Shown: positions 10,776 through 37,400 of the stretch, piece after piece
Layout of the letters: each line of letters opens with the position of its first letter
Numbering within the stretch: the stretch's first letter is position 1
The notes under the pieces: generated by a model
Told to the model about the DNA's origin: nothing
What the model saw: only the letters and a program-made list of their open reading frames with translations
Databases searched by the model: none
Translations under genes and position numbers: made by a program
Assembly (NCBI GenBank): GCA_048213135.1
Contig: PS015097.1
Coordinates: 424,724 to 462,407 of the forward strand
Length of the DNA stretch: 37,684 nucleotides
DNA from: Reclinomonas americana ATCC 50394
Lineage: Eukaryota
Direction of reading: 5' to 3'

Positions 10776-13007
10776 TTATCGGAGGGCGCGTGGACCGAGT
10801 ACTTGACGACGCTCGCCATCGCGGATGGTGCCACCGAGCAGCTGGTTGTCTGTGAGGAGGAGAGTTGATTCGGAATTGGTTGTAGTCTGCGCGCAGCGTG
10901 GTGGTGGATGGACGCAACTGACATTCTCGGGCTCGACATTAGCACCGGCAGTGCGTGGAGGTGGTCGCGATGGCGCAGCTTCGCGTGGTTTGCTGAGCGC
11001 GAATGGCGAATCCTGTTCGCGTTTGGCGGCGCCCAGATCGACACCTGTATCCTCGGTCGACACACCGCCCGTGGTTTGCTGCTGCTGCTGCTGTTCCTCC
11101 AGCAAGTGCGCGGCGGTGACGATCTCGAGGATGCGCTCGCTCACGTCCTCGTCGCCGGGACGAATGGTGTGGTGGCGCGGCAAGTCATCATCTGCACACT
11201 ATGTTGTGAGCACTTAAGACAAGCCAAGGAAAGCACTCCAGCAAAACGCAACAAGCGACACGAGTAAGCTCTGTGCGCGGCACGCGGTTGACCACACCCT
11301 GTACTGCCTGGAAGAACTCGCCACTCGACTCCTCCTCGGCCTCGGCAGGAAGCACTGCGTCGCAGGTCAGACACGAGACAACAACAAAGAGACACGAAAG
11401 AGGGTCAACCAGACCAGACTCAATATCGAGCTCTCGCAGACGTGGCCAGGCGGTCACACGTGAGGCCAGTTCCTCCAGTCCGCTCAGGCCAATGACGTTG
11501 TCTGCGCACGAACACCAACTATTAAAAACATTGTGTAGGCTACATGACTTGTCAGCCAGCAGTGCGCAACTGGCCAAGTTGAGCACACGCAAGCCTGGCG
11601 CCTTGACCAGGGCGCGTACAACCGAGGTGACGCCCTCGGCCGTCAGGTGGCATGCCGACAGTCCCAACACCGAAAGTCGTCCATTGGCGGCGATCTTGCT
11701 CACCAGGTGCGACAGCTGCCGCACGGCATCGTGGCTATCGCCAATCGGTGTCTCTGCAATCGTGGGCGGTGCGCTGTCAGTTATCGTGATACGCGGTGTT
11801 CCCATTGTTCACACCACAAACCATCCAATCGCAGCTCCTCCAGGTTCACGGCATACTTCTCCAGCGTCTCGAACAGCTCCACAAAACCGCCGAGCTCCGG
11901 ATCGGTCTCGTCGGTAATGTCGGCACCCACCGCCTGCTCGCCGTTCATCGTCAGCACCGCAACAGAGGACAAGGCACGGGGGAGAGACAGAGCAAAGAAC
12001 CTTGAGTTCCACGCGTCGCAAGTGCGGCCAGTGTGGCACGGCATGCGCAAGAGTGGCCATACCGTCGGCGCCCACCGGATTCTCTGCGCGCACGTACGGT
12101 GAGCTGCTTCACAGAGGAAAAACACTGCTTGGTTCCACACACCCCTCCTCACCCTCAATGACCAGCGTCTCCACATGCTGCGCCTCGCCGAGGGCAGCCA
12201 CCAGGAACTTGGTGGCATCGGCATTCAGCGCGTTCCCGGCACCAATGGTCACGCCCTTCAACGCCGGCCACGTCGCCGTCACCGTGCCCAACCGACCCCA
12301 CTCGGTCCACGCCGGTCGCGCCCGTGCCGACACCTCAAGCCACTCCAGCGCCGGTGCCTTGGCCAGCGTGCTCACATCCAACGACGCCGCCGACGTGCGA
12401 GACAACAGACACGCCACGTCGGTGCGTTCCCACGACTGCCGACGCGCCCGCGCACTCGGCCACGCCAACACCGCGTCAGCATAGACCGCCACTCGCCGCG
12501 CCTCGCTCAGCTGGAACGAGCACACGTGCAGTGACAGACTGACTCCGCCCTGCAACTCCACAGCGATCTTCGGAGGAACTGTGCCGATGGCATCATCGTC
12601 GTCGTCGTCGCTGACAAGAGGAAGCTCTCTGATGGGGAACGAGTCATCATCATCATCATCATCAACGCGATCAACATCACTGTTGTTGCTGTTGTCATAG
12701 TCATAGTCGCTCACTGGCCACATGACCGATTCGATCGGCTCCAAAGGCGCGACGAAGAACGACTCAAACGCATTCATCTCCCCATTGTGAACATCGCTGA
12801 GGATGGTGTCCCATGCGTCGTTCTCACTGTTGTTGTTGTTGCTGATCGGGTCGGAGTCGCTCACATCCTCGTCGTTTGCACTGTGAACACGTGTCAGTCA
12901 TTGTGCGGGAAGATGAGGAGACAGACAAGACGCAACACGACGGTGATCGCGAACAGGAGGGAGACGACGACGAGGAGGAGAAGAAAGGGGGCGAGGAGCG
13001 CTCGCAT
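10776..13007 (-). CDS. Signal-peptide-bearing leucine-rich-repeat protein (RNase-inhibitor-like LRRs) with an acidic N-terminal region; about 9 exons
   Basis: Exon 1 encodes MRALLAPFLLLLVVVSLLFAITVV, joined in frame via GT|GTTGCG…ACAG|T to ANDEDVSDSD…. LRRs include WPALKGVTIGAGNALNADAT, VETLVIEENPVGADGMATLA, WPHLRRVELK, LEELRLDETPIGDS, LSVLGLSACHLTAEGVTSVV, LRVLNLANNVIGLSGLEELA and WPRLRELDI. Stop TAA at 10776. Confidence 0.8.
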
Positions 13008-13074: not shown

Positions 13075-16000
13075 CTATCTGTGCGCCTGCGCTTGCTTGC
13101 GAAGTACCTGTGCTACACGCTGGTGGTTCCTGGATTCTGCCAGCTGCAGCGCCGTCATGCCGTCCTTGTCGGTCATGCTGAGCAGCGATTCCGGTTGTCG
13201 CGCCAACAAGCAAATCATGTCCACGGATTCGGGACTGCCGCGGAGAACGGCTTCGTGCAGCGGCGTGCGGCCGGCGGCATTGCGCACCGACACTGCTTCG
13301 TCGCTGATACCACGCCGTTCGAGCTCGCCGCAAAGCCATCGCACGACTTCGCGACAGGACACGGCCAGGTGCAAGCACGTGCTGCCGTCTTCATCGCGCT
13401 CCGTCAGCGCCTCGGCGGCTGCCTCGGCGGCCAGGAAGCGTGCAGTGCCTTCGTGTCCGCCCATGCATGCCATGGCGAGTGGCGATCGACCGTGACAGTC
13501 GCGCACGGCGAGCAGTGTCGGCATTTGCCGCACGATCCACGACACCAGCGATTGGTGGCCATTGAGAGCGGCGTAGTGCAGTCCCGTGGAGCCGTCCTTG
13601 GCGGTGAGTGCCAGTAGCGACGGATCGCGCAAGGCCAGTGAGCGAGCAAGCTGTGTGGTGAGAAGAGAAAAGGAGAGGATCTGAGATTGGTGATGCACAC
13701 TGGATGACAGAATGGCGCACGGAACCTCTTCAAATCCGTGCAGACAGTTCCGGTGAAAGTGCTGCGTTCAACAATCGATTGAGGATCCTGGAGAGCAGTG
13801 GGTACAGACACAGACACAGACACAGGCCGTACCGTGCGTCCCAGTGGATCCACGTCGCGGAGTTGATTCGGCCGCATTGTAGAGAGCCACTCTGCCAGTT
13901 CACTCTGCCACAGCGACACACCATCAATGGGGCATCACCACCACCACCGCTTCCATGATAATGCCCACTCACCTGTCCGACGGCATAATACAGCGGTGCG
14001 CGCCCGAATCGATCTCTCATTTCCACCAAATCCGGCAACTTCTCCACCAGCCACCGGCACAGCTCCACCGAGCTGCCGACATGGGCTGCCGTGTGCAGCA
14101 CCGTGCGTCCCTGCCGGTCACGCATCGACAGCAGCGCCGGCAATTCGTTCGCTAATGACTCGATCAGTCGCCGAGGAGCGCCGTCACGAATGGCCACATG
14201 CAGTGGCGTCTGTCCGGATCGACTTACGCTCTGCGCGTGGCGCCTGTCAGTGCGCAATACCTTGTGCGACAAACGGATGGAGAGAGGTACGCACCAAGAT
14301 CAGCCGCTCGCCACCAACATCGGTCAACCATCGCATCATGGCCTCGTCGCCCGTGCGCGCCGCCACGTGTGCCAGCGTGAAACTGTTGTCCTCGCGCAGC
14401 AAGATCGCCTCTGGCCACAACTCGATAGCCACCTGCAGACACCGCAAGTGACCGAGACGTGCGAGTGCATGAACCACCGTGCATTGCCGCTCTGCCGGTG
14501 TGCGCAGCAGCAGTGGTTGCACGAATGCCGGCCGGTCACGCTCAATATCGCCCCACCCGTCGAACGTGGCCAGCGCATGCGGTGCCAGGTCGCCCAGCCA
14601 CGCCACATACGCCTGGTACCGCACATCGTCGGGCCGATCACACCACGGCTGGATGCGCAGTATGAGGGACGCGACAGCCTTGTGTGCCAGTGATGCGTCT
14701 TTGGCTGCGCACGACGGTGCATGAGACGGGGGACGAGAGGAAGGAAGAAGAGCATTGCGTGAACCATACCAGTTGGATGCTCGCCCGCCAGGTCCGACAG
14801 CCACGACAGCGGTTTGAGAATGGCCGCGATAGCAGCCTGCACTGTCGCACGCGGCGCACCGCGCGTCTGCAACGCGTCCGCCAACATCGATGCCGCCAGG
14901 AACACCAGCTCGTCCAGAGTGCGGTCGTGTGGAGCATCCGCATACACCCCCATCTGACCAAATACGGCTCCCGCGCGACACGCAATCACCTGACTCAGCA
15001 GCTGGAACGGTGTCGGCATGGAGGTGAGCTGTCGCAGCTCCTGTGGTGCAGCAGAAGTAGCATGCAGTTAGTTTGTGAGCGGATTCACTCAACTGGAAGC
15101 ACATGGCACGCAACAGGCACTGAATCCCACAAGGCGCACAACTGGTACCACATGGCCCAGGCGAGTGCCTCCAGCACGTCAACAGACCGCGCAGCACAGC
15201 GGTAGCTCACATTTTCTGACGACATGAGCCACTCGGGAAGCGAGCGATGAAAGAACTCGTATGTCGGCGAGGCCGACTGTCGTGTCTGTGCCACCTTGAG
15301 CCACGGTTCGAGTGCTGCCGCGGTGAGAGGACGATGAGCATCGCTGCAAGTGAGTGCCTACAGCTTGTGGCGAAACGCAACAGCTCAACAGGCGATCAAA
15401 ATCGGCGGCCGAGGTGGTCGGCCGCAAGTATCGCATCACATCGTACAATTCGCGGTGCGACAGTGGAGTGGGGGTGCACAACACGGCTTCGAGTATCGGG
15501 CGCACGTCATCAAAGGGAATGCGCGTGTCACCTGGGACTATACCCGTCATTCCGGTCATTCCAGGCAGCAGACTCGCCGTCATTGTCGACCGCGTGTCGC
15601 CGACTGCCGAAGATGGTCGCTGTCGGAGGGGCGGGAATGTCAGCCACAGCGACACAAGACATGTGGCGGTAATTGCACGCAACAGATCCGGTCTCGGCGT
15701 TTGTTTTCACGGCCTCGTTGACAATGCGTCGGCAGGCTGCAACTCGGCACATGAGACTCTTTACGTGCGACGTGTCAACAGGTGAAACACAGACACTTGC
15801 CATTGATTTCGCCACGCTTGAACGACAAATGCTCGGTGAGCCAGGCAATGAAATCAGCGCGCACTTCTGCATCCTCCAGATCCAGTGGTCTGCACAGTAC
15901 TCAGTTTTTGTAGGAAGGAGAGAGTGCGCAACAAACAAGGCCAGCGCACCTCCATCCCTCTTCTTGCATGGCCACACGGAGCTGCTCGCATCGCTCGGCA

Positions 16001-19000
16001 GGCAGTGCCTCTGCATGCGCCGCCACGAACGTGTCGATTGACTGCAGTACGGATACCCCTCGGCCAGCAGCAGTACCAGCAGAGGCCATGCTTCCAGTCG
16101 CGGCGAGACGTGCCGAGGGTGGCGACGAAAGCGATGCACTGCCGTATCCACTCGGCGAATACACGCGCTCGAACGAGTGCATGTAGATGCTGCGAGACGA
16201 CAGGAATTGAGCCGCGATGGTCTCCTAGTGAATGAGTGTGCACACACACCACAGACCCCTTCAAGCCGCGAGGCAGTGCGCGCAGCGAGGCGAGATCGGC
16301 AAACTCGCCGGCGTGAATCCCGCGAATGTATTCGCGCGTACACAAGAAATTCCACTCGCTCTGCTCACACAACTGCGTGGCGGCATCCTCCAGCGTGCCG
16401 TCTGCCTACTCCCACCAGGCGACACAAATGAGTGCGAATGCAATGAAGGGAACATGCAACAGTCACACGAACCGGTGTCGATCGGTCCAAAAACATTCGC
16501 ATCCTCTCCTCCGAGCCCTCGCGCACCACGTGCGCCAGCAGGTCATGTCGACTCTCCTCGCGTTGCAGATTGACTTGGTAAGGAATGTAGAGGCGCGAGT
16601 GCACGGTCCGTCGGTCACGAGTGGTGCACACGATGCGCATCCACGACGGCAACTCGTCGGCACTGCAATCCGCACACACGTTGGCCACTGACACTGTTCA
16701 TCTGCCCTCCTCTGTCGTCGCCACCACCCACCTTTCTCGCAACAAATCCAAAATCGTGTCCCTCGCCCCCACATCGTCGCCCACCAGCTCGTCAAGCGCA
16801 TCGACAACAATCAGCCGACTGCTGTCGCCCTCGGCAGGCAAATCATCTAACCGCGCCAAACTGCGAAGCGGCAGCAACACTCCGCGTCGCCATGCATGCT
16901 CGTAGCCACTGCCACCCTCCGCATTCATGAGAGCCGTGCGCGCATCGGCGTCAGTGCGCAGCACTGTGGTGTGTCACGAATGAGACACCGCTCACTGTGA
17001 TGTCGCTTGCGGCTGCTCTCACCGTCACGATACTCGGGCATGGTGCGGCACAGCATTCCCGCAATGCTCCGCACAAATGCCGAAGTCTGGTTCACAGATG
17101 GAGGAGAGAGATATCAGAGTGATGTATGCAGAGTGAGACAGTCGAGGTGACGCAACGTCACGCAGTTTCGGATGCTGTGCCTTGCCCATGTGAAACGCAA
17201 TGACACGCGCACGACACCTTCCCAATGCCGTGGAGAACACGCTCCACGTCGACAACTCGCGAAGATCCTCCATCTGTTCATGCAGGGACAACAGAGTGTG
17301 TCAGAGAGACTCATATGGAACCGCGTTGTTGGTGTCGACAAAACTCCACGCTCAAAGCCAGTCCAAATACTGCGGCGTCCCACAATGGCGGCCACCACGG
17401 CCGTCTTACCAATGCCAGGATCACCGAGCAGCATCATGATTCGCTCTCCCTGCGCGGCAAGATGAGCGCAACAGGGATGGTGGCGCACCATTCTGTTCAC
17501 AGCTCACCGGTCGGCGTGGAGTGGCACAAAACTGATCAATCATATCAAACAGCCAGTCGCGGCCGACAAAACTCTCTGCCATGTCTTCTAGTGCACCCAA
17601 ATAGTCGAAGCATGCTGACGGCAAGTGGGTGTGCATCTAGAGTGCGGCGCACAGCACGTGTCAACCATGCATCGGGACGGAGACGGGTGATGGAAAACAA
17701 CAAAAAACGCACAAATCTGGCCATGGCGTCCTCTGTTAATTGTGAATCGGTGCCCGACGCTGCGCCCCATGCCTCGCCACTGCCACCGCCCGCTGAGCTT
17801 CGAGAGGGTGGTGTACTGGGTGGTGACTGCCCGCGCAATAGTAATGAGAGTGAGCGACCGCATGACAACTCAAAGAGAAACAATGCTCACCGGTAATCTG
17901 GGAATGGCCGATCGCTGTCGATTGGTGATGAACTGATGACTGAGGAGCTCGGCTGCCGTTGGTCGTTCCGCAGGGTTGCGTCGGAAGCACTGCAGTAAAC
18001 CTCAGTCATTGTGTGCTTGCGCGTGCACGAATACATGGATGCGCACGCACCAGCTGGAGAAAGTCGCGAACTTCTGGCGACACTTGGAAGGGGATGTCAG
18101 GAGTCTTGCCACCCTGCGTCACCTGGTACCAGATGGCCAGCGAATTGCTGCGATCGGCAAAAGGCACTGCGCGGTAGCAGCAATGTTACGAAGGAGCATC
18201 TGTAATTCCACACGCGGTAACGGCACGCAACTCTCGCCAGTCACCAACTCTAGCACGGTTGCACCCAGTGACCTGCATGACGACGGCGCAATAAGAGTCT
18301 CGCTCTCTCTTTCCCCTCTCACTTCGGCGACTCCCATACCAAATGTCGGCCTTGACAGTGTATCCGTTGCCGGGCGTGAGGACCTCTGTGATGATTGATT
18401 GGAGGTGAGCAGCGACGGTTGCACTTTTTCCTTCTAGTGAAGCAAACCTGGCGCCGCATAGGCGACAGTGCCCTTGCCGAGAGTGTTGGCCATCTGCGAC
18501 GCTCCCAGCACCTTGGAGCATCCGAAATCTGTATCAAGCACAGCGTAAGCACAAGACGGAGAGATAAACACAAGAGCAGTGCACCACGAACCACCGAGTT
18601 TCACCACACTGCCCTCGGGTGTGTGTGCAATCAGCACATTCTTTGGTTTCAAGTCGCCTGAAAGCAGAGATGAGAAGATGAGGGAAGGGAAGAGAGGGAA
18701 AGGGAAGAGAGGGAAAGGGAAGAGAGAGGAGAGTAGAGAGAGAGAGAGAGTTAGAGGAGAGGAGATGAGCACGAGAAGAGAAGCAAGGACGAGAGGAATG
18801 AGAGAGGCAAGACAAGAGAGACAAGGCCGAGAAAGAAGAGAGACAAGAGACGAGGGAAATGACAGAAATAAAAGAGAGGAGACAGACAAGAGAAGACCAC
18901 GAAGAGCAGACGCGTAGAGGAGACAAGAAACGCAAAGAGAAGAGAAAGGACAAGTGAGAATACCGCGACTGAGAACAGATACCAGGCAAGCGTGAAGAGA

Positions 19001-20634
19001 GAGAAAGAGAGAAACCAGCGAAACGCAACGATGAATAACGCCATTCTCATGCAAATACCGCAGGCCCTCGAGGATCTGCGCCGTGTACACCGCCACAATC
19101 TGCTCATTCATCGTGAACGATCGCTGGNNNNNNNNNNNNNNNNNNNNNNNNNNNNNNNNNNNNNNNNNNNNNNNNNNNNNNNNNNNNNNNNNNNNNNNNN
19201 NNNNNNNNNNNNNNNNNNNNNNNNNNNNNNNNNNNNNNNNNNNNNNNNNNNNNNNNNNNNNNNNNNNNNNNNNNNNNNNNNNNNNNNNNNNNNNNNNNNN
19301 NNNNNNNNNNNNNNNNNNNNNNNNNNNNNNNNNNNNNNNNNNNNNNNNNNNNNNNNNNNNNNNNNNNNNNNNNNNNNNNNNNNNNNNNNNNNNNNNNNNN
19401 NNNNNNNNNNNNNNNNNNNNNNNNNNNNNNNNNNNNNNNNNNNNNNNNNNNNNNNNNNNNNNNNNNNNNNNNNNNNNNNNNNNNNNNNNNNNNNNNNNNN
19501 NNNNNNNNNNNNNNNNNNNNNNNNNNNNNNNNNNNNNNNNNNNNNNNNNNNNNNNNNNNNNNNNNNNNNNNNNNNNNNNNNNNNNNNNNNNNNNNNNNNN
19601 NNNNNNNNNNNNNNNNNNNNNNNNNNNNNNNNNNNNNNNNNNNNNNNNNNNNNNNNNNNNNNNNTGATCCGACAGCGAACCGCCATTGCACAACTCCATG
19701 CCTACATCCCCACACAAATGAGCGCACAGATAGCAGAAGAATAAGAAGAGGATAATGATGAGAGGAAGAAGAGGAGAAGAAGAAGAAGAAGGAAGAAGAA
19801 GAAGAAGACCAACAACAAGAACAACAAGAACATGAAGAAGAACTGGAAGAAGGAGACGGAGGAGAGGAAGAAGAAGAACAACAAGAACAACAAGAACAAG
19901 AAGGAGGAGGAGAAGAAGAAGAAGAACAAGAAGAACAACAAGAAGAAAAGGAAGAACAAGAACAAGAACAAGAAGAACCAGAAGAACAACACCAACAAAG
20001 AGGACTGACATGACAAACCAATGAGAATAGAGTCGGGCTCACGTCGCACACCGACCAACTTGACGATATTCGGATGCATCAATTGCCGCAACAATGAAAT
20101 CTCCTCTGCAATCGCATTCATCGATGCCGCCTGGGTGAGCACAGAGAGTGAGAGGAGAGTGTGGGAGGTTTATGTGTGCAAGTATCATCATGTCACGAGT
20201 AACGTTTTGCACAGCTAATCGTTTCACAGCAATGATATCGCCTGCGCGGTCGCCGGAGATGACCATTGCGCGGAACACATCGCCTTTTGTGTGAGAGAAG
20301 AGCGAAAGAGAGAGTTAGAGAGCGAGGAAAAGAGTCATCAATCAGAGAGTGTGCGCACCGAAAGCTCCGCGTCCAAGACGATCCTTGACTGTGCGTGTGC
20401 GTGTGTGTGAGAAGAGAGAGCACAAGGAGAGAGAGAGAGAGAGTGAGTGCGAGGTCACGCGACGTTTTCCCCGATTTCTTTCGCGTAACTTTCCAGTTGC
20501 AAGTCGCCGGACTCACGCACTGTGGCGTCGAGCATTGCTGCGCCATCAGTGACACTGCTGTCTCCCATTGCTTTGCACAGAGACGGAAAACAATGATGTC
20601 CCAGTGTCCTTCGAAGGTGTTTCCCATCAATCAT
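13075..20634 (-). CDS. Multidomain Ser/Thr kinase (STE11/MAP3K-like) + STAND P-loop NTPase (NACHT/NPHP3-N/TANC-like) + winged helix + ~11 ankyrin repeats; ~30 exons, roughly 1,400-1,500 aa
   Basis: Kinase motifs: LGRGAFGDVF, IIAVK, EEISLLRQLMHPNIVKL, IHRDLKPKN, KLGDFG, GTVAYAAPE, ADIWSLG, RPTAAELL. In-frame phase-0 joins lead to FVGRDWLF, Walker A GDPGIGKT (17402-17425), Walker B LIVVDALDE (16788-16814), LPSWMRIVCTTR, LPRGLKGIY and FFHRSLPEWL, then ankyrins (TPLHVA, TVLHTAA, TGLHYAA, TPLHEAV…) to TAG at 13075. The start is ambiguous (ATG at 20634, 20627 or 20568), and a few kinase codons lie in the 19128-19664 gap. Confidence 0.88.
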
Positions 20635-20662: not shown

Positions 20663-22024
20663 ATGCAAGTTGACTCTTCCGCATTTGAGCTTTCCTCTCG
20701 CCTGCTCAGCGAGTTTGCAGTGGGCGCAGTCTTCAAAGACCATGTGAGTGGGCATGCCTCGCTCTCTCTCACTCTCTGTGTCACTCACTCACTTTCAACA
20801 TGTGAGAGAGTGCAGAGTGCACCAGTGAACTCTGTGGACTTTTCGCGCGATGGATCGTGGTTGGTCACAGCAGGCGACGATCGAAGTGTGCGATTGTATC
20901 GCTGTGAGAATGCATCGTTGCGTTGTCTCTCTCTCACACACTCTCACACAAACTCATTGTGTCTGTCTGCACGCTCACCTCTGTGGCAGACTGGAAAAAA
21001 CCTCTCTGTGTCAAAAGTTCGGCTGTGAACACGTGCGATTCACACATCATCCGCAGAATGTCATTCATGCAAGCAGCAATGCGTGGGATCGTTGCGCGCA
21101 CACACACTCACTCACACGCCCACTCACTACTCTGTCTGACACAAGCGCGTGCAGACAGCATACGATACCTCAGTCTGTACGACAATGTCTACTTGAGATA
21201 CTTTCGGTGCGGCTTCTTGCTGCTGCACGCAGACAGCTCCGCCACTACACTCAGTGAGTGCTGACTGGTATTGTCGCAGTGGGCATCGCGATCGAGTCAC
21301 CAGCTTGGCCATGTCGCCGAAAGACGACACGTTCTTCTCTGCAGCGCGCGATCATACGGTGCTCATGTGGGATCTGCGGCAGTCCAAGTGCCAGGGCAGG
21401 ATTAACTTGACATCGTCGTACAATGTGGTGGGCTTTGATCCGACGGGCGAGGTGTTGGGTGTGGCGTCGTCGTCGTCGAATGCGTTGCGGTTATACGATG
21501 CGGCCAACATGAGCAGTGGGCCATTCGAGGTGGTGAACGTGGAGTGCCCCTCGGTCGAGTTCACGCACGTCAAGTTCTCCAACAATGGCAAGCTGATCAT
21601 GCTGGTCACCAATCAGTCGCTCATTATCATTCTCGATGCGTTTGAGTATCACAAGGTGCATCGAACCACCCCTGCTCGATCACCTCTCTTGTGCTTACTG
21701 CTCGTGCACGCGCAGCTGGCCGAGATCACCGACTACAGCAACCTGCAGAGTCTGGAGCTGGAGGCCTCGTTCACCCCGGACTCACGATACGTGCTCGTGG
21801 GCTCCGACGACGGTGCCGTGCGTGTCTTTGACGTGTCCGAGTGCTGCGCCGCCGCCGGCACCGAACGAGAAGGCCATGCACCTCCCATACTCTCGCCTTC
21901 GCTGGTCGCCACCTGGCAGGTGCACGCTGGACCCGTGCGCGCAGTCAAGTTCTCGCCGACGCACTTGCTGGCGGCCAGTGCGTGTCAGAATGTGGCCATG
22001 TGGATCCCCTCGTCAGCACTGTGA
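20663..22024 (+). CDS. WDR82: WD40 protein Swd2/WDR82 (COMPASS and PNUTS/CPF subunit); 6 exons
   Basis: Spliced product includes [101 protein letters not shown] and LEASFTPDSRYVLVGSDDG, all characteristic of Swd2/WDR82. Confidence 0.95.
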
Positions 22025-22102: not shown

Positions 22103-24584
22103 ATGGAGAGCGTACCACTGCGCATTCTCTATGCCACACAGACGGGCAAGGCATGTCTGTCTCTCTCTCTCTCTCACTCACTCACTCTCCCTGTGTGTGC
22201 GTTGAGGCTCACCAGTGATGCAGGCGCGCGAGGTAGCTTCTCGTGTCTCTCGCGAGGCCCGACGACGAGGTTGCGCAGCCTCTCAAGTCGCACCTGTCTC
22301 TCTGCGTGACTATGACAAGGTATCTCTCATCCTCCTTACTCACTCTGTCTCTCAGTGAGCAGCAACTGATGATGATGATTGATAGGCACTATTGGTCGAT
22401 GAGAGCATTGTGGTGTTTGTGTGCTCGACCACTGGTCAGGGAGAGGTGCCCGACGACATGAAGGCAAGCTCTTACTCACTGACTCACTCTCTGTCACAAC
22501 AGCATCTCACGCCCGCGACTGCTCGTTTGTTGACAGAGCTTTTGGCACTTTCTGCTTCGTCGCGATCTGCCTGCTGGTTGTCTCTCGCGAGTGTGTGTGG
22601 CCGTGTGTGGACTCGGCGACTCGTCGTATGCACAGTTCAATGCCACTGCGCGACGATTGGAGAAGCGACTGGAGCAGCTGGGAGCACAGATCGTAGTCGA
22701 GCGAGCAGAGTGCGATGAGTTGCATCCGCAGGGGTGCGTGGACGACTGCGTGTGCGAGAGACGGCGTTGTTTGTCAGGGCGTTTGACAATGTTAATGCAT
22801 ATAGAATTGAGGGCTCGTTGACGCCGTGGTTGTCGCGTCTGTGGTCGGCGGTCTCGCAGCGGTTTCCGGCATGTCCGCGCTATCCGGTGATTCCCGACGA
22901 GGAGCTGTTGCCGACACGGTTCACTGTGCAGAGTGTGGCGACGCCGGATCATGTGGCATCGCCGTCTGAGTTGCGTTGTGATGGGGAAAAAAGGGGAGGG
23001 AGGTGGGGGAGGAAGGTGCTCATTTCGCGCAGACTGTTCGAGGACGCTGTGCAGTTGGTGCGACGGGTGTCGGCGCAGCGCATCACGCCGGCCGATCATT
23101 GGCAAGATGTGCGGCATGTGGTGTTTGATATTTCCGGTGGCGATGAACAGGAGGAACCGCTGTTGAGGTGCGTTTTTTTTTGTCGCGGTTTGTGCGCTCT
23201 CTCTTGATTCACGGGTGATGTGAAGATATTCGCCCGGTGACGTGCTGGTTGTGCATGCACCCAATCCATCGGCGCTTGTCGATGCGATGCTGGCTCGTCT
23301 CGGCGCTGAGTTGGCCGAGACGCCAGTCACCATCTTGTCGGCGAGTGGAGGTGAGTGGTGCACTGCACACACTGTCTTCCCACACGCTCATACTTACCGG
23401 TGAACCAGCTGGCGCACTGTTCTCGGGCGCTCCGGTGCTGCCGCGTGATCTGTTCACGTGGTGCCTGGATCTCGCGGGTGTGCCCTCACGCTACTTTTTC
23501 GAGGTGGCCTCGCACTTTGCGCAGGATGAGCGGCAGCGGGAGCGATTGCGTCACTTTGCCAGCGACGACGGTGTCGACGACATGACGCGGTACGCGAGGA
23601 CCGAGAAACGCACTTATGTGGACGTACTGGAGGACTTTGACTCGGTGCACATGCCACTGGAGTACATGATCGAGTGCATCCCTCCGCTGCAGCCGCGTCC
23701 CTTTAGCATCGCCTCCAGCCAGCTGGCGCATCCCACCGAGATTCACTTGTGTATGGCCGTGGTGCGCTACGAGACGCCGTTCCATCGCAAGAAGGAAGGG
23801 CTGTGCTCGGCGTGGTTGGCGAGCGAGGATGTCAGTTGCGTCGAGTCGCGAGACGAGGTAGAGGCGGTGGGTATTGTGTTCACTGTGTGTTGTGGCATAG
23901 ACACGGTGTATGTGTCGGTGAAACGCGGTGCATTTGTGTGGCCGGAGCCTCTCCTACACACGCCGCTGATTCTGGTGGGACCGGGAACCGGTTGCGCACC
24001 ATTCCGCTCCCTCTGGCAGCACCTCGAGGTGCTGGAGCGTGAGAGCGACGGTTTGCAAACAAGGGGGGGTGGAGATCTAAGGAGAGTCTCTCCCGTTTGC
24101 TCACACACATGCCCGACACACAGATCGACCACGCCCGAGTCGGCGCCACTTTTACTTTGGCTGCCGCAATCGCGACAAGGACCGCCACTACGGTGAGGAG
24201 CAAGACAGTGTGCAGGCCGCGGGCGTGCTGGAGACCGTGCGTGCGGCGTACTCTCGCGACTCGCCCGACGAGGAGCCCACTGGCGGCGTCTACGTGCAAC
24301 ACCTGATGAAGATCGACGGAGCGACACTATGGCACCGACTGCACGACGAGGGCGCCTACCTGTTCATCGCAGGGTAAGTCGAAAAATCGACAGCCTTTTT
24401 TTCAACAGCACGGTTGTCATTGCTGTTTTGTGTGCGCAGGTCCGCGGAGAAGATGCCGCGCGACGTGCTCGCCGAGCTGCGGCGCATCGTGCAGCAGCAC
24501 GGAGGCATGTCGGAGGCTGAAGCGGTGGCGTATGTTCGACGGCTGGAGGTGCAGAGGAGAATTCAAATGGAGACGTGGACGTAG
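22103..24584 (+). CDS. NDOR1: NADPH-dependent diflavin oxidoreductase 1 (Tah18; cytosolic Fe-S assembly); 11 exons
   Basis: [134 protein letters not shown] and C-terminal ETWT*. There is no N-terminal membrane anchor, unlike cytochrome P450 reductase. Confidence 0.95.
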
Positions 24585-27627: not shown

Positions 27628-30689
<3,062 letters not shown>

Positions 30690-34465: not shown

Positions 34466-37400
34466 ATGGCCGCCGCTGCTTCTGCCACCATGCAAGCTGT
34501 CCGCGAGAAGACTGCGTCCGCCAGTATCACTGCCGCGCAGAGTGAGACTCTTGTGCGCAACCTCATGCGCACTTCGATCTCGTCCATTTGCTACCTGCGC
34601 AATCTGTTTCCCGACGACTGTTTCGAGGACAAGGAGCTGGCCAGTTGCGTCTGCGCGTGTGCTCGCTATATTATCTTCTTGTGATGAGAACGCCCACTCC
34701 TTCTCAGCTGTTGTCTTTTCCTCGAGAGTCCTCTTTTCTGCTCTCTTTTTTTATCGTTCTCACTGTCTCTTGCCGCTCTTGGTTGTCCGTTCCTCCCGTG
34801 CTCTTGTCACTCTCTCAGTCCTACCTGCCACTCCTTACTGTTTGCTCTCTGCACTCTTCTCTCTCTCTCTGCTACGTGCCAGTCCTTGCTGTTGACTCTG
34901 TGCTCTTGTTTCTTTCGTCGTTCCCACTGCTGTAGTTTCTGTCTCTTGCCGCTTGTTGGTTAACGTTCCTCTCGTGCACTTGCCTCTCTCTCTCCCTCGT
35001 GCCAGTCCTTGCTGTTGGCTCTCTTCTCTCATTTCTGGCGTCAATCAGCCTTGTGCCTGTGTCGCTCGTTCCCACTCTTTCCGTTTCTGTCACTTACCAC
35101 TCGTGCCCTTGTAACTCTGTTATCTGTCTCTGCTCTCGTTTCCACCAGTGTTTCCACTCCTTCGGATTCCGTCACAGTCGTGTGCCAGTGCCACTCTCTC
35201 ATTAATTCTTCTCCCCTCTCGTTTCTTCAACTGCGTTCCCCTTCTGTTTCTGCTCTGCCCGTCTGGGTGTTCTCTCTTCACTGTCTCCACTCACCGAGTC
35301 CCCACCCTTCGCTTTCTTCAACACGCCACCTTCCCACAGACTTGCAAATCAAGAGCATCCGCGGCCGCAACACCGAGGCGCGCCTGCTCATCGACTGGCT
35401 CGAGAAGGGCGTCTTCCACGCACTCAAGCTCAAGTATGTTGCGTGGCGGCGCGTTCAATCGCTTGACTTCTCCCTCTCTCTCCCTCTTCGCGCCTCACCT
35501 TCCGCACGCGCGCACAGCTGAAGACGCTCATCTTTGGCATCTACGGCGATCCGGGCCGCGAGTCGACCATGCTCGAGTCGTACTACTTTCACTTTCGGTA
35601 CTCGGAGGACGGCGTGGAGATGCAGAGTTGCGCCCCTTCAATCATGTTGCTCTTGCTTCTGTCTCTCTCTCTCTCATGCGTTGTCGGCGAACTCAGTGGA
35701 CCGCCAAGCGGCTGTGGTCGGGCAGTCAGCTCTGCCGCGGACTCGTGAGGAGATCCGCAAGTCGACGGTCATTGTGCTGCGCACGCTCATCTCGCTCATC
35801 CAGACGCTGCCGCCGCTGGCGGGTGAGTGCCACTCGCTGCTGCCACTGCGCCCTGTTGCTTCTCTTTACTGACGCGGACGCACAGACACGCGCTTCCTGA
35901 CGATGCGCCTGCTGTACTACGACGACATTACGCCGCCCGACTACGAGCCAGACTACTTCCGCGCCTCCTCCAGTGGTGCTTCGCGCAGTGCTTTTTATGT
36001 GCCCTTTTCCCCCTGTGTGCTTACACTGTTTGCGCAGACGATGCGGTGACCTTCTGTCGCCAGGAGGATGACCTGATGATTGGCGAAGTCCGCACACCGT
36101 ACCACGAAATGTCGTTGCGTGTGCGCACTCGCCCCGAGACCCTGGAGGTGACGCACGAGGCTATCCAGCACTCGCAGTCGACGTCGGTCACGGCTGCCCC
36201 GCCCCCTCCGCCACCGCCGCCGCCACCGCTAGCCTTGCAGGGTCAGTGACGAGCGGGGCTGTCTCTTCCCCCATTTTTCGTTCCCTCACTGCTTGTCCCC
36301 AGACACCACCATGGTGGCCATCCGACCGTCGTCGCCATCGGCGGGCGACGGACAGAGCAGTGCGTCGGGCGACGACCGCGACGGCGAGGAGCTCTTCTAT
36401 GCCACGGCGCTGGTCCAAGTGCTGACTGCGGTGCGGTATCGAAGAAGAAGCCGTGTTGTGTTGTGCTTTTCTTGCTGATTTAAGTGCAGGATGTGGTGAG
36501 CGTCAGTTCCCTGGCTCGTGCCCTCGATACCACGAGCTTTGCTGCGCGGGCAATCCTCAAGCGCATGGAGGACGAGGGCATTGTGGTGACCAATGGTCGT
36601 CGCGGTCTGTACCCTTTACCGTGCGCGCGCGCGCGCGCGCATTGCGGTGTTGTCGCGCGCTCACTCTTTGTCGCCCCAGGCATGCAAGTCATGCACAACG
36701 ACTGCACCAAGCGTCGCCTTGTCGAGGCGCGACGCGTGCTTGCACAGGCTCCGACGACAGTGCACGCTGCTGTGGTTCGCGACACACCGCCGGCACTCTC
36801 CTCCGACTACTTCAGCACCGGCCAGCACGCGCTGCTGATGCCGGCCCATGTTGCTGCGACGACGGCGACTGTACCGAGTGTCGCCGACATTGAGGAGCAC
36901 CTGGCACGCACCACTATCGACACGACGGCGGGGGCGGGAGTGGGAGTGCGTTGTTGCTGCTATTGTACTATTGTGCGGGTGGCTGTTGCTGACTGTCGCC
37001 GACAGATGAGCGCCTTCTCCGGCGTGAAGAATCGCCGGGTGTTCCCGGGTCAGCCAATGTCGACTCCACCGCTCTCCGCCACAGATGTCGACGGGGTGGT
37101 GAGTGCAACGCCGGTGGAGTCGCCCAAGCTGTTTGCGCCCGTCCCCGTCGGTGAGTGAGCCTGGTGGAGTGTGTGCTGTGTGTGGTGTGCAGTGACGACT
37201 AATTTCGGAAGATATTGCAGCTGCAGCTGCTGAAGTGCATTCGCCTTTTCCGGTGGTGGTGCCCATGGACGATGGCGACGAAACGGACGCGGAGGACGAG
37301 CTTGTCGGCGGTGCGTACCGCGCTGATCCCTGCGTCTTGCACACCCGGCTGACACACTGCACAGAACCGGCGCCTGTTGTGCAATGCACGCCACCTCCGC

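Follow-up and report, generated by a model that had tools for sequence, protein, structure and literature searches.

In Reclinomonas americana ATCC 50394, a 37,684-nucleotide (nt) stretch of contig PS015097.1 (positions 424,724 to 462,407; hereafter the window) carries on its minus strand a predicted Ser/Thr protein kinase followed by a predicted STAND-type nucleoside triphosphatase (NTPase), a winged helix and an array of ankyrin repeats. We favour, with modest confidence, the reading that the kinase and the STAND-ankyrin parts are one fused gene of ~31 exons encoding ~1,500 residues. The kinase frame would be spliced through an intron at 17890-17827 into a short linker exon and from there to the NTPase, as splice-site and codon statistics suggest. 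Fusion is favoured because the segment 17890-17827 is intron-like, because codon use in the linker is exon-like and because the linker has no start codon upstream of it. The balance thus tips somewhat towards fusion, with the exact second junction uncertain.

The exon model was built from window coordinates and then checked by script. It runs on the minus strand from an ATG at 20634 to a TAG at 13077-13075 and comprises 31 exons, with GT..AG at every junction, no internal stops and positive codon log-odds in all 31; the spliced translation yields ~125 residues before an assembly gap (a run of N) inside the kinase and 1,365 after it. The domain order from N- to C-terminus is kinase, NPHP3_N/TANC-type STAND NTPase, winged helix and ankyrins (Table 1). 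Intron lengths are narrowly distributed, with 23 of the 30 modelled intervals at 58-79 nt. The remainder consist of three microsatellite-rich introns (128, 317 and 372 nt), one of 48 nt, one of 538 nt that is the N gap, and two slightly above the 58-79 nt range; the two introns linking kinase to NTPase, at 64 and 76 nt, are inside it. This regularity was used to set the junctions S7/S8, S9/SX/S10 and S11/S12. The profile and sequence searches took contiguous window DNA, and the exons were therefore scanned one by one. Donors have a weak consensus, with mostly G or T after the GT, and in many introns a CTCAY- or CTGAC-like motif that may be the branch site lies 10-25 nt 5' of the acceptor.

The junction between the kinase and the STAND module

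Splice-site scores and codon log-odds at the junction were obtained from matrices and codon models trained on the exon model of this one gene, with the junction left out. The intron 17890-17827 scores 10.2; the 27 other introns, scored leave-one-out, range from -0.8 to 14.3 with a lower median, and only 2 of 156 GT..AG decoys inside long exons equal or exceed it. The same intron also belongs to the best two-intron path across the junction. The linker exon, 17826-17713, reaches +8.6 bits in frame versus at most 5.5 for all 29 scoreable introns in any frame. Both linking segments have negative codon log-odds in every frame, and three non-coding controls (a 78-nt intergenic spacer and two post-stop windows) range from -4.7 to -15.5. 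The sliding codon profile passes from coding through a dip, a peak and a second dip back to coding and agrees with the predicted boundaries. The sole in-frame ATG of the linker is at 17724-17722 and the exon-like signal begins near 17826, ~100 bases earlier, so the linker exon needs an exon upstream of it. Were the linker joined to the kinase and left unspliced to the NTPase, its frame would enter the NTPase coding sequence for 90 bases and end at a stop at 17547-17545.

A number of observations weigh against a single gene, and two genes in tandem are a serious rival whose probability we hold to be appreciable and short of even. Here a stand-alone kinase of ~330 residues, ending at 17872-17870, would precede an effector-less STAND-ankyrin protein of ~1,150 residues starting either at ATG 17636 or, if the 76-nt intron is used, at ATG 17724, the adjacency being due to chance in a gene-dense genome. 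The NTPase exon opens with ATG 17636 directly after an in-frame TAG (17639-17637) and 22 codons before the motif FVGRDW with which the NTPase domain begins, exactly as would be seen in a separate STAND gene. The second ATG, at 17724, is in good context. By 17891 the kinase domain has been completed, and the kinase frame read through the donor at 17890 stops six codons on. Between that stop and ATG 17636 lie 234 nt, which suffice for two genes, since the locus is surrounded by an extremely compact genome in which such a spacer is generous: a plus-strand WD40 gene of Swd2/WDR82-like type starts (ATG 20663) 28 bases from the kinase ATG, head-to-head, and ends (stop 22022-22024) 78 bases short of ATG 22103, where an unrelated diflavin reductase gene begins, tail-to-head. 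With start codons 28 bases apart and a stop-to-ATG distance of 78 bases, transcripts here must overlap or have very short untranslated regions.

The earlier note on this DNA had relied on one continuous spliced frame from kinase to NTPase. Such a frame exists, and it is no more than chance would supply. When the 254 bases between K12 and S1 were shuffled keeping their dinucleotide content, and any in-frame, stop-free GT..AG path was counted, a bridge turned up 1818 times in 2000 shuffles (more than 90%) when introns had to be 55-80 nt long, and 1936 times in 2000 when 48-130 nt were allowed; the continuous frame therefore carries no evidential weight. The lesson for method is that in a GC-rich genome with short introns (the window is ~58-60% GC) chance alone can be expected to bridge neighbouring genes by an open spliced frame, which is thus not evidence of fusion. 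The real junction offers 20 two-intron in-frame paths, among which the path of the earlier note ranks 9th by splice-site score, and 488 in-frame paths with up to three introns. That note's second intron, the GT..AG segment 17712-17637 of 76 nt, is present as described, and its acceptor is poor: its score of 3.0 is equalled or beaten by 57 of 156 decoys. Set against its own dinucleotide shuffles, 107 of 2000 of which reach its score, the linker exon is a borderline case, as are several true kinase exons of its size, and its frame preference is weak (+8.6 versus +6.6 in another frame). The models themselves are small and self-trained. Finally, no homologue with a kinase-STAND-ankyrin architecture was found in the word-index, HMMER and Pfam searches given below.

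What two separate genes account for less well is the segment 17826-17713, exon-like in codon use, unlike all introns and non-coding controls tested, and with no start codon before 17724; to this is added the good score and typical length of the intron 17890-17827. In general, a eukaryotic STAND protein without an N-terminal domain is less usual than a fusion, and so is a MAP3K-like kinase that lacks a regulatory region. Most eukaryotic STAND proteins have an N-terminal effector domain. A pseudogene, or an assembly artefact in which the draft joined or collapsed sequence so as to mimic a fusion, is very improbable. It would draw on the ten N runs in the window (1524-31778, 20-846 N each), one of them in the kinase, and on the microsatellite-rich introns that flank gaps, but the junction region 18500-17300 is free of N and reads cleanly, none of the 31 exons contains a stop, their splice sites are canonical and their codon log-odds positive, and the catalytic and nucleotide-binding motifs are all intact. 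N gaps in the window tend to adjoin CT/CTT microsatellites, e.g. around 19665-20000 and 18660-19020, which suggests that a short-read assembly was broken at repeat-rich introns.

Two further signals at the junction were considered and set aside. The acceptor at 17793 scores 11.6; as the main form it would give a frame with codon log-odds of -4.7 and a stop at ~17739. A CG plus T-run motif at 17700-17709 (minus strand), at the start of the 17712-17637 segment, was considered as a possible terminator or promoter signal and dropped, its matches having no clear link to gene ends. The strict form of this pattern occurs three times in the window against 0.15 expected and could be such an element or just an intron pyrimidine tract; a similar T-rich stretch lies just before ATG 22103.

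Domains of the kinase and STAND-ankyrin parts

In the spliced translation the kinase motifs follow one another in canonical order, from the G-loop through the AVK lysine, HRDLKPKN and DFG to APE, with exon junctions falling inside HRDLKPKN (K6/K7), DFG (K7/K8) and APE (K8/K9). Pfam Pkinase matches exon K4 (22.0 bits, E 1.2e-4, model positions 43-75) and exon K6 (25.1 bits, E 1.3e-5, model positions 91-121) in the right model order, each score being that of an exon alone and below the cut-off of 31.7. The segment between kinase subdomains V and VIa falls in the N gap between K5 and K6; this gap should hide few residues, because the Pkinase model ends at 75 on K4 and resumes at 91 on K6, and no catalytic motif. 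The earlier description of an intact STE11/MAP3K-like kinase thus stands as to its motifs, GxGxxG to APE, and is not borne out as to intactness, given the 537-base gap; the family label is weak. Exons K6, K7 and K8 were searched jointly, one open frame running through their introns. Against PDB sequences the best single stretch for this read-through open reading frame (ORF) is in ASK1/MAP3K5 (29.6 bits), beside GCN2, CHK2 and PLK3, with GCN2 and ASK1 heading the matches, and the likeness to the ASK1 kinase domain is limited to one exon, the one with the helix before the catalytic loop. Exon K4 alone matches CDK2 and CaMKK2, and exon K11 alone gave no kinase match. The STE11/MAP3K assignment is therefore a weak lead from the K6-K8 ORF. 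HRDLKPKN is not known as the usual STE11/MAP3K form of the catalytic loop.

The STAND part begins with a P-loop NTPase whose Walker A (GDPGIGKT, exon S2) and Walker B (LIVVDALDE, exon S5) satisfy the consensus forms GxxxxGK[ST] and hhhhDxxDE, so that both motifs are intact as had been claimed. On single exons the NPHP3_N profile reaches 12.9 bits for S2 and 12.4 for S5 (cut-off 24.8), with sub-threshold NACHT (15.9 bits) and AAA_16 matches also on S2. When the Walker B exon was looked up with a language model, every one of the named Atlas clusters closest to it was NPHP3_N, the top value of 0.82 lying below evidence level and serving as a lead only. The lid and insert exons S7-SX gave no Pfam match; they have GT..AG introns of 58-79 nt and positive codon log-odds, and their junctions are the least certain of the model.

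At the level of sequence profiles, a winged helix of TANC1 type that follows the NTPase and lid is well supported. Pfam HTH_TANC1 matches S10 (20.5 bits, E 4.3e-4, model positions 7-53) and S11 (19.8 bits, E 7e-4, model positions 64-102) as consecutive model segments in order, each below the cut-off of 27 bits and the two above it jointly by simple addition. S11 holds FFHRSLPEWL, the stretch in which the earlier note had recognised a winged helix. The spacer exon S12 that follows gave no Pfam match. Pfam Ank families match S13, S14 and S17, with Ank_2 on the last exon at E 6.9e-38, and a count by eye in the spliced translation gives 11 repeats, in agreement with the ~11 noted before.

The stop codon follows the last ankyrin repeat, and Pfam found no TPR in any modelled exon or in downstream minus-strand ORFs of at least 90 aa. 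No C-terminal LRR was found, the repeats being ankyrin and faint LRR hints (E 0.055) being confined to a separate downstream ORF. From its domain matches the module is best described as an ankyrin-bearing STAND ATPase of NPHP3_N/TANC type, and as neither a TANC orthologue nor a strict NLR, because there is no TPR after the ankyrins and LRR hints occur only in another ORF. The effector-STAND-repeat architecture put forward earlier accordingly holds in domain inventory and order; that it resides in one polypeptide is a reading we lean towards, and the NLR designation does not hold in its strict sense.

Related proteins and a possible mechanism

Searches for relatives returned none with this architecture. 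The Walker B exon S5, in a word-index search against longer proteins, found no orthologue. The last ankyrin exon, S17, gave 34 matches in such a search, all of them generic ankyrin proteins; one of these, P0021, combines kinase and ankyrin repeats and was rejected as a homologue, as its middle part is a coiled coil in which Pfam finds no NTPase. HMMER with exon S13 against 1.84 billion representatives gave 393 matches at E<=1e-3, and the best 150 of the 393 all match mainly via the ankyrin-like part of the query. Pfam scans of 23 of these best 150 found a STAND domain in six and a kinase in one (ANK-Pkinase-HECT), and in none of the 23 a kinase and a STAND domain together. Metagenome scans found no relative, and phmmer with the spliced STAND part gave no match among 191 retrieved proteins, fungal NPHP3_N-ANK proteins included. 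The earlier note had named no characterised example of this exact architecture in a protist, and searches of open-access main texts yielded no protist kinase fused to a TANC/NPHP3_N-type NTPase and ankyrins.

Kinases as effectors of NLR-like proteins in fungi and mosses, to which the earlier note had pointed, are on record. Fungal NLR-like proteins have Pkinase among their recorded N-terminal domains and, as their three usual repeat types, ANK, TPR and WD40 (Dyrka et al. 2014, PMC4986451; PMC9815663; PMC12258605), and in Sordariales the kinase is C-terminal in 9 of 12 Pkinase-bearing NLRs (PMC12258605). The fungal proteins share the three-part layout, combining an effector with a NACHT/NPHP3_N-like STAND NTPase and ankyrin repeats; they differ in that the winged helix here is TANC1-type, and the phmmer search left the fungal NPHP3_N-ANK proteins without a match. 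In mosses PK-NBS-LRR (PNL) genes exist (Xue et al. 2012, PMC3352924). These are alike in having an N-terminal kinase, a STAND NTPase and C-terminal repeats, and they pair NB-ARC with LRR whereas the protein here pairs an NPHP3_N/TANC-type NTPase with ANK. The differing NTPase and repeat types point to a separate origin.

The animal STAND scaffolds TANC1, TANC2 and rolling pebbles are alike in that a P-loop STAND NTPase is followed by ankyrins, and it is their TANC1 winged helix that is matched on two consecutive exons, at per-exon scores below the curated cut-off. TANC proteins have a P-loop STAND domain, ANK and TPR and no kinase (PMC5533708); the NTPase, the ankyrins and the lack of a kinase had also been stated in the earlier note. 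They further possess long disordered ends, whereas the protein here ends right after the ankyrins and has no TPR.

If the fusion is true, this would be a variant of an already known architecture, because kinase-NOD-repeat proteins are known in fungi and mosses. It would also be the third eukaryotic lineage, after these two, with a kinase as the output domain of a STAND/NLR-like protein. With an NTPase of TANC/NPHP3_N type and ankyrin repeats, it would support the repeated assembly of effector-NOD-repeat proteins from the same parts, and, as a single chain, would be a simple system in which to study kinase activation by STAND oligomerisation. Should the genes be separate, an ordinary kinase lies beside an ordinary STAND-ankyrin gene.

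A fused protein could work as STAND and NLR proteins do in general. Its N-terminus would be a Ser/Thr kinase with competent-looking catalytic motifs, joined by a short Ser/Pro/Gly linker to the NPHP3_N/TANC-type STAND ATPase, with P-loop, lid, TANC1-type winged helix and helical spacer, and then to the ~11 ankyrins. By analogy the ankyrin array may hold the ATPase off and bind a partner or ligand; nucleotide exchange would then let the STAND module oligomerise, and the oligomer could gather the N-terminal kinases for trans-autophosphorylation and downstream signalling. The sequence of ligand sensing, oligomerisation, kinase trans-activation and feeding of a MAPK cascade, proposed in the earlier note, is an inference from such analogy. 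The signalling role could be immune, stress-related or that of a scaffold, an immune role being conjecture. The broader proposal is rather unlikely: that a STAND receptor with a kinase effector arose independently in a deep-branching eukaryote whose genome is ultra-compact and which has no sequenced close relative, assembled from a MAP3K-like kinase, a TANC/NPHP3_N ATPase and an ankyrin sensor, in which oligomerisation switches a kinase cascade directly and without adaptors.

Feature coordinates and neighbouring genes

Table 1. Predicted features of the kinase and STAND-ankyrin locus and of neighbouring genes, in window positions.
Feature	Position	Strand	Remarks
Ser/Thr protein kinase	17891..20634	-	12 exons; GT..AG junctions, open spliced translation; Pfam Pkinase on K4 and K6
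Kinase exons K1-K4	20634-20517, 20388-20359, 20283-20204, 20130-20019	-	
Kinase exons K5-K8	19701-19665, 19126-19030, 18657-18595, 18528-18448	-	
Kinase exons K9-K12	18385-18340, 18272-18232, 18166-18051, 17989-17891	-	
537-base N run (assembly gap)	19128..19664	.	Inside kinase, between exons K5 and K6
Putative intron K12>LK, 64 nt	17827..17890	-	Splice-site position weight matrix score 10.2; intron-like codon use in 3 frames
Putative linker exon LK, 38 codons, Ser/Pro/Gly-rich	17713..17826	-	Codon log-odds +8.6 bits in frame
Putative intron LK>S1, 76 nt	17637..17712	-	Intron of the earlier note; splice score 3.0
Alternative second intron, 73 nt	17657-17585	-	Splice score 10.1
P-loop NTPase core of STAND module	16473..17636	-	Exons S1-S6; Walker A and B
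NTPase exons S1-S3	17636-17508, 17449-17345 (Walker A), 17273-17157	-	
NTPase exons S4-S6	17086-17023, 16963-16732 (Walker B), 16662-16473 (TTRD sensor-1-like motif)	-	
Helical lid and insert region	15684..16405	-	Exons S7 16405-16248, S8 16189-15950, S9 15889-15816, SX 15736-15684
TANC1-type winged helix-turn-helix	15115..15619	-	Exons S10 15619-15362, S11 15285-15115
Helical spacer, winged helix to repeats	14770..15040	-	Exon S12; open frame, codon log-odds +31
Ankyrin region, ~11 repeats and stop codon	13075..14704	-	Exons S13-S17; Pfam Ank families
Ankyrin exons S13-S17	14704-14295, 14230-13973, 13904-13833, 13761-13699, 13650-13075	-	
Flavodoxin_1 and FAD_binding_1 diflavin reductase	22103-24200	+	
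RINT1/TIP1 family protein	28121-29215	+	
HORMA domain protein	34964-35745	+	

The three plus-strand neighbours listed last in Table 1 are of ordinary housekeeping types. For the highly conserved Swd2-like exon at 21197-22021 on the plus strand, database matches are 32-40% identical and none exceeds 40% identity; the best (38-40%) are from the glaucophyte Cyanophora and the red alga Galdieria. The host thus seems to have no close sequenced relative in the collections searched and, as far as these matches tell, is not a fungus. Just downstream of the STAND stop, ORFs at 11191-12897 on the minus strand, probably a separate gene, contain RNI-like leucine-rich segments as well as a stretch of acidic residues, and Pfam gives only faint hints of LRR there (E ~0.06).

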